64,000 nucleotides of DNA from Nanobdellota archaeon (GTDB lineage Archaea > Nanobdellota > Nanobdellia > Parvarchaeales > Parvarchaeaceae), in NCBI GenBank assembly GCA_021791655.1, contig JAJYWD010000003.1, positions 166 through 64,165 on the forward strand, read 5' to 3'. The notes below the pieces were generated by a model that had not been told where the DNA came from, did not search any database, and saw only the letters and a list, made by a program, of their open reading frames with translations. Every line of letters begins with the position of its first letter. The stretch's first letter is position 1. Below are positions 7,475 to 19,500 of this stretch, one piece after another. A program made the translations under genes and the position numbers.

Positions 7475-7584
7475 TGGGGTCGGCCGGATTTGAACCGACG
7501 TCAAGCGGTTTCTTCTAATCATTCTTTCGTCATTTTTCCAGTCTAGCTGGAGCCGCTTGTTCTGCCAGGTTAAACTACGACCCC
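7475..7584 (-). tRNA. tRNA-Trp (anticodon CCA) with a 37-nt intron in the anticodon loop; CCA not encoded
   Basis: The reverse complement is GGGGTCG TA GTTT..GAAC A AGCGG CTCCAG [37-nt intron] A CCGCT.. GTCGG TTCAAAT CCGGC CGACCCC A. The cloverleaf is complete once the intron is removed. Confidence 0.8.
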
Positions 7585-13189: not shown

Positions 13190-13345
13190 TCAGATGTAAT
13201 TCTCCTCGTCTCCCTGGTTTTCTACTTTCCCTTCTTCGTTCTCTTCCTCTTCTTCGGTGTCCTCGTCGTCGGAAGGTTCTTCATCAACGTCAACATCCTC
13301 GTCTTTAGATTTCTTGGTATTCTCCACTTTATCTTCCTTTTTCAT
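13190..13345 (-). CDS. small highly acidic protein of 51 aa
   Basis: MKKEDKVENTKKSKDEDVDVDEEPSDDEDTEEEEENEEGKVENQGDEENYI, preceded by AAAGGAGAG 10 nt upstream. The tracked TTG start 14 codons earlier lies inside the conserved leader block. Confidence 0.45.
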   Translation of the reverse strand: MKKEDKVENTKKSKDEDVDVDEEPSDDEDTEEEEENEEGKVENQGDEENYI

Positions 13346-13362
13346 AGGTTGTACACTCTCCT

Positions 13363-13403
13363 TTCCATTGTGACATCCTCCCACCAATGGATTGATGGGC
13401 TTC
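13363..13403 (-). promoter_or_regulatory. conserved 41-nt leader block, copy 1, forming a hairpin directly upstream of GGAGGAUG
   Basis: 38 of 41 positions are identical to 19248-19288. The minus-strand RNA reads GAAGCCCAUCAAUCCAUUGGUGGGAGGAUGUCACAAUGGAA. Confidence 0.55.
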
Positions 13404-13691
13404 CGGTTCCTGCTTCATAGACACGACTTGCATGCGGTTTCCCGCGGTGCATGGGCCGGATTCTCGACGGGCTTGACTTCCCCTCTGTCCAAGGGTAACT
13501 CCCTTTTGGGGAGTATTTTATCGGTCTTTCGACCGACCTTTTTTAGGTTTTACGTTTAGTCGACAACCTTTTATCTTAAGCATCGGTCTATTCCTTTTTG
13601 GGATAGACTTCATTATCGATATTATTGTTTTGTTTTCCGTCTATTTATGTTTTCCATCTTTGAGTCCACTCTCACCCCACCGCTAAAGCCT

Positions 13692-13721
13692 GTGGGATTT
13701 CCCGCTCACTATGATAAATTT
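13692..13721 (-). promoter_or_regulatory. putative promoter: TATA-like box with a GGGA-N2-TCCC inverted-repeat operator, copy 1
   Basis: On the minus strand, AAATTTATCATAGTGAGCGGGAAATCCCAC sits just after the pcd stop codon. Near-identical to 19469-19500. Confidence 0.45.
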
Positions 13722-15505: not shown

Positions 15506-16015
15506 ATGAAAAAGGCAGTGTATGCTGGAAGTTTTGACCCCGTAACAAATGGCCATTTATGGATTATTGGGCAGGGTGCGAAAATATTCGATGAACTTAT
15601 AGTCGCTGTGGGAGAAAACCCGCAGAAAGGGCACGAGTTTTCAGTTGCAGATAGAATACGGATGCTAAGGGGGTGCACAAAAAAATACAAGAATGTTACC
15701 ATCGACGGCTTTGAGGGTCAGTTCTTGGTAAGATACGCAAAATCAAAAGACGCCGAATTCGTGATCAGGGGGATAAGATCTAGTATTGATTATGAGTATG
15801 AGCGGGGCATCGCAAGAATAAATCAGGAACTTGAGCCGGCTATCCTTACCATTTGTCTAATTCCTCCCAAGGAACTATCAGAGATAAGCTCCAGCATGAT
15901 AAAGGGCCTCGTGAAAAGCCGGGGCTGGGAGACGGTGGTAAAGAGATACCTACCGAAAGAGATACACAAAGAGTTCATAGAGCACTTTTCAAGGCAAATT
16001 AATACACTGCAATAA
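15506..16015 (+). CDS. coaD: phosphopantetheine adenylyltransferase, bacterial CoaD type
   Basis: AVYAGSFDPVTNGHLWII (the (H/T)xGH nucleotidyltransferase motif), IRGIRS..DYEYE and ISSSMIKG match CoaD. Confidence 0.8.
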   Translation: MKKAVYAGSFDPVTNGHLWIIGQGAKIFDELIVAVGENPQKGHEFSVADRIRMLRGCTKKYKNVTIDGFEGQFLVRYAKSKDAEFVIRGIRSSIDYEYERGIARINQELEPAILTICLIPPKELSEISSSMIKGLVKSRGWETVVKRYLPKEIHKEFIEHFSRQINTLQ

Positions 16016-16032
16016 AATGTTAAATAATTAAC

Positions 16033-16108
16033 TGGTGGGCTCGGAGAGATTCGAACTCTCGGCCTCCTGCGTGTAAGGCAGACGTCATAACCGCTAGACC
16101 ACGAGCCC
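16033..16108 (-). tRNA. tRNA-Val (anticodon TAC), 3' CCA encoded
   Basis: The reverse complement is GGGCTCG TG GTCT..GAC G TCTGC CTTACAC GCAGG AGGCC GAGAG TTCGAAT CTCTC CGAGCCC A CCA. Confidence 0.85.
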
Positions 16109-16200
16109 AACTTATTTATTCTGTATTGTATTTTTATAAACTATTAAACGCTATTTCACTGAGATAGAGATTAATAATTAGAGCTATATAAAGTCTAATC

Positions 16201-16292
16201 GGGCTCGTAGCTCAATTCGGTAGAGCATCTGGCTCTTAAATTAAGGATTTAGAGCCACCAGAGTGTTGCGGGTTCAAATCCCGTCGGGCCCA
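16201..16292 (+). tRNA. tRNA-Lys (anticodon CTT) with an 18-nt intron after position 37
   Basis: GGGCTCG TA GCTC AATTCGGTA GAGC A TCTGG CTCTTA [AATTAAGGATTTAGAGCC] A CCAGA GTGTT GCGGG TTCAAAT CCCGT CGGGCCC A. An extended helix GGCTCT.AAAT/ATTTAGAGCC spans the intron junctions. Confidence 0.75.
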
Positions 16293-16621
16293 TTTATTTT
16301 GGATAAAAACTAAGGGATAATTCATATTGCCATTCCAAAACCACTTATTTATACTTTCTATCAATTGATTACATTCTAACTGCGCATAAATCCCAATCAG
16401 ATTTGGAATACTCAAATCAAGGTAATTCTTCCGCTATTTATATGATAGCCCACAATACAAAATCAGACGAGCGTTTCTTTTTAGTCAATTTGATTGATTT
16501 ACATAAGCTGCTATTTTAAAATGCGTCGCCATGTTGTTTTATTGGTGTCTATCTCTTCACATTATAAAAGTACTTAAACGCAGACCAGACTAAAAATAAT
16601 AGTACTCTTGATACTATTATT

Positions 16622-17089
16622 ATGAAACGTAAGAAAAAAAGGCCAAGGCTCACACTGTTATCCACTTTATGGATAGTCTTGATTTTATTGACAATAGTGG
16701 TATTTGCAGTTCGAATCAATAGTCCAGTCCACAATAAACAAACATATTTATTTGAGACGTCTAGATTCCCGTATCTTGTCGATGTTAATCATTCTTGTAC
16801 TTCTAACGGAACTTCCGTCGAATTTGGAAATGGAAATGACTTTAGTATACATTTAATTAGTGCACGGGTTGATGCATTTGACAACAAGACGATTATAAAC
16901 CCGCAGCTAACAAGCACGAATTCGATTAGACAGATTACGCCAGGAGAAGATTTTTCTGTATTATTCGTAAATTATACATGTTCTAGTCCCGGCGACATTT
17001 ATTCAGCAAATATAAGTATAAGCTTCTTAGACACAGAGACTAACCTAACTATAACTGACAATGGGACTATAATCGGAGTGTCCAGCTAA
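16622..17089 (+). CDS. hypothetical secreted or membrane-anchored protein in the low-GC island
   Basis: Basic N-terminus followed by a hydrophobic helix, then an N/S/T-rich mature part. Confidence 0.4.
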   Translation: MKRKKKRPRLTLLSTLWIVLILLTIVVFAVRINSPVHNKQTYLFETSRFPYLVDVNHSCTSNGTSVEFGNGNDFSIHLISARVDAFDNKTIINPQLTSTNSIRQITPGEDFSVLFVNYTCSSPGDIYSANISISFLDTETNLTITDNGTIIGVSS

Positions 17090-17869
17090 AATCGCTCTAA
17101 TTTTAGAAAATCACATAACTTTATAAAATTAGTGAAATTATGGGACAATGAGATAGACGAGAGCAGTACTCCCTACAGAAAAGTGTACACTTGCATGTTA
17201 AAATCTGTCAGTGCAGCAATGAAAGCCGGAAGAAAACGATGATTGCAAGTAAGTTATTGTGATTACAAGAGAACATTTTCTGCTGAGAGTTTTGCACAAC
17301 GCATATTAACTTCTTGTCAAAGACTTCTGAAATTAAAAATTTAAAAAATAAAAATCTGAACTCTAGAAAATTGTTAACAGTATATCTGATTATTCACGGA
17401 TTATCTTCGTTTTTTTGCTTTTTTCTTTTTTGCCATCTTATATAGAGACATTACTTACTTTTATAGATTTATGGGCAAAAACTGGGAATATTCTATTAGA
17501 TTATTATGCTGTTCGATCCGGTAAACGCAGGCGGGGTCAGAAGGAGTGGCATCGCCATTTAAATTATATGCTCTTGCACGGCTTGCACCACAAACACTTT
17601 TAAAATTGCATTCGTTACAATAGCTTACGAGTTTCCAATTTCATATTGCGTTTAGAACATCGTTTTCTCTGTAGATTTTGACTATGTTATTTTTCTTACA
17701 TTTCCAAGAGCCAGCGGTAAAAAGCTGCCAGATGATATTTTCCCAGTGCATTATACAAACACTATGCTATTTTCGTCATTACTCCACGTGGCACCCTATA
17801 TGAACATAAATACTGGTATACCTTCAAGTTCAATCAGTCTGGAACATAAGTAAAGTTTGTCTTTCTAAT

Positions 17870-18190
17870 ATGTATCCGATCCAAATTTGGCATACGCCTG
17901 ATAAAACAACTCTTTTCAACCGCACAACTGAAATGGGAGAGAAAACAGAAGGCGAATTCAATGCCAAGTTCTTGTCGTTAGATTTTGTAGAACTTGACGA
18001 GTGTCCTTTTGTTATATGTGCTACACACAATGACAAACCTATCAATTTAGATGGACCGAAAAAGACAACCGATATTTTCTTCCCGTCCGTTTTCTATGGC
18101 AGCGATTTAATGGATATGAAAAGCATAACAAATAACATAAAAATAAATCTGGATTACAGGGCGACTGAGGGGAAAAATTCGAAAAGCTAA
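17870..18190 (+). CDS. hypothetical small protein in the low-GC island
   Basis: ORF track only. Confidence 0.3.
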   Translation: MYPIQIWHTPDKTTLFNRTTEMGEKTEGEFNAKFLSLDFVELDECPFVICATHNDKPINLDGPKKTTDIFFPSVFYGSDLMDMKSITNNIKINLDYRATEGKNSKS

Positions 18191-18681: not shown

Positions 18682-19248
18682 CTAACGCTTTACTTCCGCC
18701 ACGACTTTCCACCACTTGAATTTCTTTTCTATAAAACTGTCCAGGGAATAAGGATTCGTTCCATTAGAAGCGTTCAAAATTATAAGGAAAAGAAAAACCA
18801 TAGCGTAGATTATTCCAGTGCCTATGTCGGTAGATCCTGGACCGTACGGGCCGCCGAATCCTTCTGGGATAGCCCAGATAAACAGACTAAGAATTAGCCC
18901 TCCGCCGTACGCTGTCTTTCTCGCGAATCCCGCGATTAAACAAAACGCGAGTAGTAATTCGAAAACGCCGGTTACATAGACCAGGACCGCAGAATTACTA
19001 TTGGCCTGAGAAAGCCAAAACGAGAACCAGCCCTGCAACCAACCCGGCTGGCCAGCTGCGACACTTTGAACCATCGATGGAAACGCCGAAACCAGACCGG
19101 GCCAGAACTTGAACTGCCCGTCTATGCCCCACATTATACCAAATATTATAGCCAGGGTCCTGCTTATTTTGTATATATTGCGTGCTATCCAATTATCGAA
19201 GCCTGACAGGGGCTTTTTTCCTCGGGCTATTTGAGTATGATACGCCAT
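18682..19248 (-). CDS. DoxX-like polytopic membrane protein
   Basis: Four TM helices with a DoxX-like arrangement. The ATG (MAYHTQ..) follows the conserved leader block directly; the tracked ORF extends upstream through the leader. Confidence 0.45.
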   Translation of the reverse strand: MAYHTQIARGKKPLSGFDNWIARNIYKISRTLAIIFGIMWGIDGQFKFWPGLVSAFPSMVQSVAAGQPGWLQGWFSFWLSQANSNSAVLVYVTGVFELLLAFCLIAGFARKTAYGGGLILSLFIWAIPEGFGGPYGPGSTDIGTGIIYAMVFLFLIILNASNGTNPYSLDSFIEKKFKWWKVVAEVKR

Positions 19249-19288
19249 TCCTTTGTGACATCCTCCCACGAATGGATTCATGGGCTTC
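19248..19288 (-). promoter_or_regulatory. conserved 41-nt leader block, copy 2, hairpin next to GGAGGAUG
   Basis: The minus-strand RNA reads GAAGCCCAUGAAUCCAUUCGUGGGAGGAUGUCACAAAGGAA. The C-G pair of copy 1 is a G-C pair here. Confidence 0.55.
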
Positions 19289-19468
19289 TTTTCGCACGAC
19301 CATCTCCGAAGAGACCTTTCGGCACGATTTATCGCCGACGGATGGCAAATCGTGGGAACAATCTTTAAATGCACTCTCTGTCCGAGAGCCTTCCGTCAAA
19401 GTGTTCACTCGTCCCATATTTATATGCCTTTATTTTTCTGTGTTCGCTTTCATACGCCTCTAAAGAGC

Positions 19469-19500
19469 GTGGGTTTTCCCGCCCACACTTTATAAACTTT
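19469..19500 (-). promoter_or_regulatory. putative promoter: TATA box with a GGGA-N2-TCCC operator-like palindrome, copy 2
   Basis: The minus strand reads AAAGTTTATAAAGTGTGGGCGGGAAAACCCAC. Confidence 0.45.

Follow-up and report, generated by a model that had tools for sequence, protein, structure and literature searches.

The window, that is, the whole 64-kb stretch of DNA analysed here, is contained in the metagenome contig ENA ERZ27237285 k141_772059 (82.6 kb) and has an archaeal content that includes intron-bearing tRNAs, DUF929, TFIIE and RNA polymerase subunit L. The tRNA genes at positions 7475-7584 (110 nt) and 16201-16292 (92 nt) are long enough to contain introns, which is consistent with an archaeal genome, and both are missed or misread by ARAGORN in bacterial mode. 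Between 16001 and 18000 the GC content falls to 0.35, compared with about 0.45 elsewhere; this segment, located beside the tRNA genes at 16036-16108 and 16201-16292, may be foreign DNA, and the ORFs at 16622-17089 and 17870-18190 gave no Pfam hit.

On the minus strand of the window there are two nearly identical blocks, copy 1 at positions 13403 to 13363 (GAAGCCCATCAATCCATTGGTGGGAGGATGTCACAATGGAA) and copy 2 at positions 19288 to 19248 (GAAGCCCATGAATCCATTCGTGGGAGGATGTCACAAAGGAA). A preliminary description had reported that they share 38 of 41 nt, a value that was obtained again when recomputed, and a 36-nt degenerate pattern allowing up to three mismatches matched copies 1 and 2 only and gave no match in any of 100 dinucleotide shuffles. 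As to the extent of the block, conservation holds up to the motif GTCAC (ending at 13370 and 19255), and the last 7 nt of the 41 lie outside the conserved element. The two copies are located 7 and 25 nt upstream of start codons and in the same orientation as the genes that follow, an ORF of 51 amino acids (ATG at 13345) and a gene for a 188-amino acid membrane protein (18682-19248, minus strand). The latter protein had no Pfam hit, and the label "DoxX-like" that had been given to it is therefore tentative. In the JGI annotation a 199-amino acid version of the same protein is labelled "nitrite reductase (NO-forming)"; its start at an ATG inside the copy 2 hairpin is probably a start-codon miscall.

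Each block contains a stem-loop, CCCAUCAA-UCCA-UUGGUGGG in copy 1 and CCCAUGAA-UCCA-UUCGUGGG in copy 2, with a 4-nt loop and one U-G wobble. The hairpin described earlier is thus present in both copies, its stem comprising 8 bp and not 7, and the compensatory double change within it (a C-G pair in copy 1 that is a G-C pair in copy 2) is real, as is the sequence GGAGGATG directly 3' of the stem (GGAGGAUGUCAC after both hairpins). When 161 nt surrounding each copy were folded as single sequences, the z-scores were unremarkable (-0.2 and -1.1), so that fold stability alone is uninformative for these blocks. A search of the whole window with Rfam 15 at the gathering threshold returned tRNAs only, and at E values of up to 10 around both loci no family overlapped either block. 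When the regions upstream of the two copies were compared by blastn and MAFFT, the alignment was confined to the block.

The block terminates tnpB- and tnpA-carrying elements in other contigs

A collection of genomes and metagenomes was scanned with the pattern CCCNNNNNTCCANNNNNGGGAGGATGTCACA, which fixes the closing CCC/GGG, the loop and the tail and is agnostic to the rest of the stem. Among the few matches, a Nitrospirota MAG (contig L004, also L007 and L008) carries the block with the stem CCCCCGAA/TTCGGGGG and a 5-nt loop, 38 nt past the stop codon of a tnpB gene (Pfam OrfB_IS605 and Cas12f1-like_TNB) that is itself preceded by a Y1 tnpA gene (Pfam Y1_Tnp, 4e-41). In a metagenome contig (L005/L006) the stem CCCACGGC/GTCGTGGG differs from that of the window at four positions, all of them still paired, and a complete TnpB ORF of 409 amino acids extends into the block. 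Six homologues of this TnpB were then picked by protein similarity alone (53-78% identity to the 409-amino acid protein), disregarding the DNA; the named ones come from Nitrososphaerales/Thaumarchaeota MAGs. All seven distinct tnpB loci terminate in GCGGGAAGC, a hairpin with an 8-bp stem and a 4-nt loop, and GGAGGA(T/C)(G/A)TCAC, and the sequences compared are unrelated directly past TCAC. Because the similarity stops right past GTCAC, this motif marks the transposon boundary.

In agreement with these data, a scan of viral contigs with the pattern GGAAGC-N17-19-GAGGATGTCAC detected the block directly after tnpB in L021, L025 and L042 and after a tnpA-only element in L030, together with several further copies without a nearby gene. 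In total, the block follows tnpB or tnpA in L004, L006, L011-L017, L021, L025, L030, L042, L050 and L051, and the near-invariant end GGAGGATGTCAC is common to archaeal, bacterial and viral-contig copies. The downstream context of the blocks of intact elements varies and includes convergent genes (L014, L051) and non-coding DNA. Within intact elements the tnpB ORF reads the block in a different frame from that proposed for the window and stops at varying points within the hairpin. The linkage to tnpB and tnpA largely refutes the proposal, made in the preliminary description, that the block is a leader of the genes downstream.

In L030 (4985-5020 and 4220-4239, minus strand), the tnpA-only element begins with GTGAC|ATCCTCCCC-hairpin, a left end that is the reverse complement of the tail GGGGAGGATGTCAC at its right end. 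About 75 nt past the right end there is another right-end-like hairpin, and a further copy, whose tnpA is degenerate (L018), is present in the same viral contig. Pattern matches in the Asgard archaeon "Hermodarchaeum" (L003, 5629-5659; L010, 11467-11497) and in L009 have poor stems and reach about 13 bits (E about 0.5) with the right-end model R1 described below; they were left unused, being either chance matches or decayed right-end relics. The L003 and L010 loci lie between rpoL and a KH-domain gene and share an upstream GAAG.

Models of intact elements recover a right end and a left end for each copy in the window

The covariance model R1 was trained only on the seven tnpB-linked right ends. 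In the window it matched exactly 13499..13370 (E 2.1e-5) and 19393..19255 (E 2.2e-5), at full length and with 31.7 bits each, and with the filters off the next match had an E value of 2.3. These scores are comparable to those of distant tnpB-linked copies (27-36 bits), and the window copies match the 3' 121 positions of the model with their covarying helices. Further relatives of the block do exist, as had been proposed as a check, and a model built on tnpB-linked members finds both window loci.

Common to the left ends of the intact elements are TTATCA, 4-6 variable nucleotides, GAGCGGGAAAAC, a hairpin and GGGATGARRGCGAGC; in the Nitrospirota element a related left-end module, GAGCGGGAA..GATGAAAGC, was recognized by eye. 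The model R2, trained only on five left ends of intact elements, matched exactly two sites, 19496..19438 with 32.6 bits (E 2.3e-7) and 13718..13660 with 27.8 bits (E 5.7e-6), there being no third match in the window below an E value of 1. Both sites are on the same strand as the blocks and upstream of them. In the window, the common left-end module and the GGACA-loop hairpin had first been spotted by eye; the models then confirmed both. Since the tnpB-linked R1 and the intact-element R2 both match, the window holds two tnpB-less derivatives, referred to hereafter as c1 and c2.

Element c1 covers about 342 nt (13370..13711, minus strand), its left boundary being placed within 1-2 nt at the point where the flanks of intact elements stop aligning. 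It is preceded by the left-flank motif TTTATCA (13712..13718), presumably the TAM and target site of TnpA, which occupies the same position in intact elements. The subterminal hairpin of the left end, CCCAC..GGCTTTAGC..GTGGG (13676..13696), aligns to the hairpin of R2 and is preceded by GAGCGGGAAA and followed by GTGAGAGTGG, a module that also occurs in intact elements and in the Nitrospirota tnpA+tnpB element. The interior of c1 is AT-rich with small hairpins. Towards the right there follow the GGACA-loop hairpin CCCTT-GGACA-GAGGG (13481..13495), homologous to tnpB-linked hairpins, and the right-end block itself (13370..13403), which is made up of GAAG, the hairpin CCCATCAA TCCA TTGGTGGG (13399-13380) and, reaching to the transposon boundary, the tail AGGATGTCAC (13379-13370).

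Element c2, with about 235 nt (19255..19489, minus strand), has the same order of modules: the TAM-like left-flank motif TTTATAA (19490..19496) within the R2 match, the GGACA-loop hairpin CTCTC-GGACA-GAGAG (19374..19388), supported by the R1 alignment and by covariation, and a right-end block (19255..19288), likewise supported by R1 and covariation, with GAAG, the hairpin CCCATGAA TCCA TTCGTGGG (19284-19265) and the tail AGGATGTCAC (19264-19255). Each window copy thus consists of a left end (flank motif, GAGCGGGAAA, hairpin and a ATGAAAGCGA-like stretch), the last approximately 130 nt of an omega-RNA-like scaffold and a right end. The flank motif of the intact tnpB elements L012, L051, L016, L006 and L011 is TTTATCA, GTTATCA, GCTATCA or ATTATCG, and in all a TTATCA-like motif is conserved beside the left end of seven elements. 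The cleavage motif of the right end finishes 10 nt from the foot of its hairpin, and the flank motif of the left end stands about 16-19 nt from the foot of the left hairpin.

The 10 nt beyond the two right ends (13360-13369 and 19245-19254, minus strand) read AATGGAAAGG and AAAGGAATGG and are about 7-8/10 identical; as family-wide conservation stops at GTCAC, this likeness of the outer flanks is unexplained by a transposon model.

The functional modules are shared between c1 and c2, whereas their interiors differ. Judged from their sequences, c1 and c2 are not recent copies of one MITE family; they may be two independently decayed or shortened insertions, active or dead. Only these two copies were seen in the 64 kb of the window and the next 10 kb of the contig. 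No tnpA or tnpB gene was detected in the window by tblastn with two TnpB queries and one TnpA query, and the next 10 kb contained neither tnpA, nor tnpB, nor a further copy of the element. Nine other contigs of the same organism, which encode proteins from this neighbourhood, showed no empty site or polymorphism, all of them being 100% identical across the elements, and the 20-nt guides past each right end had no other match in the window. In Logan contigs (L062, L063) two independent assemblies break at the same position in c1 (window position about 13570), breaks of this kind being typical of repeats that have other copies in the genome.

Three helices of the right end covary

The conservation of the terminal hairpin was analysed over 14 distinct right ends, nine of which had been taken irrespective of structure, whereas the five from the viral scan had been retained for having a hairpin. 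In this set 95.5% of the cells were paired and seven of the eight pairs changed on both sides, a level of pairing reached in none of 500 shuffles; registers slid along the same alignment were 33-60% paired. The G-T wobbles of the hairpin occur on the top strand only. The conservation is therefore that of a strand-specific nucleic-acid hairpin and not of a peptide, which bears out what the preliminary description had argued.

In the tnpB-linked copies the terminal hairpin is accompanied by a GGACA-loop hairpin upstream and by a 5-bp closing stem just before it. The homologues of the GGACA hairpin read CCCAC-GGACA-GTGGG (L006, L011), GCCCC-GGACA-GGGGT (L012) and CCCTC-GGACG-GAGGG (L016), and five of the six pairs of this helix (helix 1) have changed on both sides. 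For the whole scaffold, in an alignment of 14 copies including those of the window that was fitted to the covariance model, 92.9% of the cells were paired and 20 of the 36 pairs changed on both sides. Covariation was thus found in three helices: the terminal hairpin, the closing stem before it and the GGACA hairpin. A terminal hairpin by itself would also be explained by the action of TnpA on single-stranded DNA, and both the right-end and the left-end hairpins of the window fold with single-stranded DNA parameters; the covariation of the two other helices is in keeping with an RNA scaffold, the omega-RNA of TnpB, which overlaps the right end and the 3' end of tnpB. The compensatory change between copies 1 and 2 would accordingly have arisen because the hairpin is under selection as a transposase or omega-RNA structure.

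A prediction by RNAalifold on the tnpB-linked alignment (A3) pairs columns 16-23 with 154-161, where the partner of the tail GGAUGUCA is UGGCAUCC, located about 140 nt upstream. These pairs are invariant and hence without covariation support. The UGGCAUCC segment is absent in c1 and displaced in c2, so that c1 and c2 may not yield a functional omega-RNA. Element c2 carries UGCCAUCC, on the opposite side of the GGACA hairpin. A pseudoknot between the loop AUCC and the GGAU of the tail was also considered and discarded, the loops not being conserved (TCCA, TCTA, TTTA, TTCA, CGAA).

Discussion

The results presented here indicate that the 41-nt block is very probably the right end of a gene-less IS200/IS605-family element rather than a leader that regulates the genes downstream. 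The TnpA transposase of this family binds subterminal hairpins of the top strand and makes two cuts, one behind the target motif on the 5' side of the left hairpin and one behind the end motif on the 3' side of the right hairpin. New copies of such elements go in on the 3' side of a defined short target sequence, the target is not duplicated, and terminal inverted repeats are lacking. TnpB takes its RNA from the right-end region, with the flanking DNA as the guide, and cuts empty sites, which preserves the element. The right end identified in the window consists of the 5' flank GGAAG, a subterminal hairpin of 8 bp with a 4-nt loop, and the 10-nt tail AGGATGTCAC at the boundary. In the full-length relatives it would act, as single-stranded DNA of the top strand, as the hairpin and cleavage motif recognised by the Y1 transposase TnpA and, as RNA, as the 3' end of the TnpB omega-RNA scaffold, the guide being provided by the DNA past GTCAC. 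TnpA and TnpB encoded elsewhere would then act on c1 and c2 in trans, and both elements would be mobile now or have been so formerly, and would be transcribed. Their closeness to two downstream start codons would be a consequence of the position of insertion; the "unrelated downstream genes" are the DNA adjoining two insertion sites. The empty-site junctions expected from this model are ...AAAAATTTATCA|AATGGAAAGGAGAG... for c1 and ...AAAGTTTATAA|AAAGGAATGGCG... for c2.

The architecture of c1 and c2 agrees with that of characterised members of the family (IS608, ISDra2 and the tnpB-only elements of IS1341 type): at either end there is an imperfect subterminal hairpin, the two being on the same strand and having 5' flanks that are alike (GCGGGAA), the element closes with a conserved motif 10 nt past the right hairpin, and another conserved motif flanks the left end. 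IS608 shows the same distances from hairpin to motif as found here (10 nt at the right end, about 16-19 nt at the left), and its motifs are TTAC and TCAA, unlike the TTATCA-like flank and the (G/A)TCAC end of the elements described here. Relatives with window-type ends share with the family a Y1 tnpA and/or tnpB; the window copies differ in being gene-less. As regards the RNA, c1 and c2 resemble the omega-RNA of TnpB in their full-length model match, their three covarying helices and an end at the boundary where a guide would start, and differ from it in having no adjacent tnpB and an upstream scaffold part that is absent or rearranged. This class of TnpB omega-RNA (reRNA) includes the sotRNAs of Halobacterium, which lie downstream of IS1341-type tnpB genes.

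On sequence grounds c1 and c2 resemble miniature non-autonomous derivatives comparable to palindrome-associated transposable elements (PATEs). According to Meers et al. (2023, bioRxiv 10.1101/2023.03.14.532601), gene-less IS200/IS605 elements of this type, described in haloarchaea and Geobacillus stearothermophilus, "often encode omega-RNAs", for which TnpB has to be supplied in trans. Like them, c1 and c2 keep both ends, lack an ORF, measure a few hundred nucleotides and retain the right part that encodes the omega-RNA; in contrast to PATEs, they are visible as two copies only and their interiors differ.

The presence of both elements directly upstream of genes raised the question of whether they have been exapted, so that an omega-RNA-like transcript or a captured TATA-like promoter regulates the adjacent gene, or so that the transcript guides a TnpB- or TldR-like protein encoded elsewhere. 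Several observations go in this direction: only the modules are conserved between c1 and c2, with diverged interiors; both right ends adjoin gene starts in the same orientation; the left flanks TTTATCA and TTTATAA resemble an archaeal TATA box; and both elements are fixed, being identical in nine of nine sampled contigs. There is also a precedent in domesticated TnpB relatives, which have been described as RNA-guided transcription factors (10.1101/2023.11.30.569447). However, the modules are conserved throughout the IS family, and two recent deletions from different subfamilies would explain the pattern equally well; in addition, the guides match nothing else in the window and the 5' part of the scaffold is absent. 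Exaptation of c1 and c2 is therefore unlikely.

A particular course of events, which we regard as doubtful, is that the TATA-like target motif of this archaeal subfamily leads to insertion between a host TATA box and the transcription start. The captured host promoter would, with the same low probability, express the omega-RNA (and tnpB in full-length copies), and the displaced gene would be read through the element. With c1 removed, the distance from TTTATCA to the ATG (13345) of the 51-amino acid ORF would be 24 nt, a leaderless-promoter geometry, which hints that c1 may have inserted between a TATA box and a leaderless start. If such a capture did take place, the right end with its hairpin and GGAGG would become a new 5' leader, and fixed gene-less copies would be retained as expression signals.

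The transposon end also accounts for the features that had suggested a cis-regulatory RNA leader whose hairpin sequesters or exposes the Shine-Dalgarno-like GGAGG and so controls translation of the gene downstream. The hairpin is real and covaries, its stem overlaps GGGAGG, and the copies lie 7 and 25 nt upstream of co-oriented starts; yet the identical motif ends transposons regardless of the DNA downstream, convergent genes and intergenic DNA included, and both window copies have a transposon left end of their own. The block with GGAGGATGTCAC terminates IS200/IS605 elements and, in the window copies, has its matching left end 235-342 nt upstream, which contradicts control by SD sequestration. 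Moreover, GGAGG is at least 13 nt from either ATG, the pseudoknot between loop and GGAU is not conserved and no Rfam family matches. Because GGAGG and ATG form part of an invariant transposon tail, whatever lies downstream, the regulatory explanation fails and is now very unlikely.

The blocks might alternatively be direct repeats (att sites) flanking an integrated island of 5.9 kb that includes the low-GC region at 16-18 kb. They are indeed repeats in the same orientation, 5885 bp apart, with a GC content of 0.35 at 16001-18000 and tRNA genes nearby; this explanation is refuted by the fact that each block belongs to its own complete LE-RE unit, there being no integrase between the blocks and the block ending IS200/IS605 elements elsewhere, and we consider it highly improbable. 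Finally, the view that the downstream proteins begin with a conserved peptide, KPxNPxVGGCH, encoded by the block is almost certainly wrong, since, although both blocks are in frame with the downstream ORFs and the 199-amino acid JGI version starts at an ATG within the copy 2 hairpin, a TGA eight codons upstream of the sole possible start (TTG) makes KPINP untranslatable in copy 1, all three substitutions, and not two of them as previously stated, are non-synonymous in the frame then used (KP-I/M-NP-L/F-VGGCH-N/K), the 1-nt loop insertion of the L004 relative would break the frame, and tnpB ORFs use another frame and stop inside the block at different places.

The finding that the block is very probably a transposon right end has consequences for the annotation of archaeal genomes. 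A transposon end can mimic a translational control element, in this case a hairpin adjoining GGAGG-ATG upstream of two genes. Members of this IS subfamily can be recognised with the models R1 and R2 or with the motif GGAAGC-N18-GAGGATGTCAC, which would lead to fewer false "riboregulator" calls in archaeal MAGs. PATE-like derivatives of IS200/IS605 elements that retain omega-RNA-like sequence are already known, and c1 and c2 are a further instance in an uncultured archaeon, with the near-invariant GGAGGATGTCAC as a simple handle for delimiting the 3' ends of omega-RNAs and their guides in this clade.
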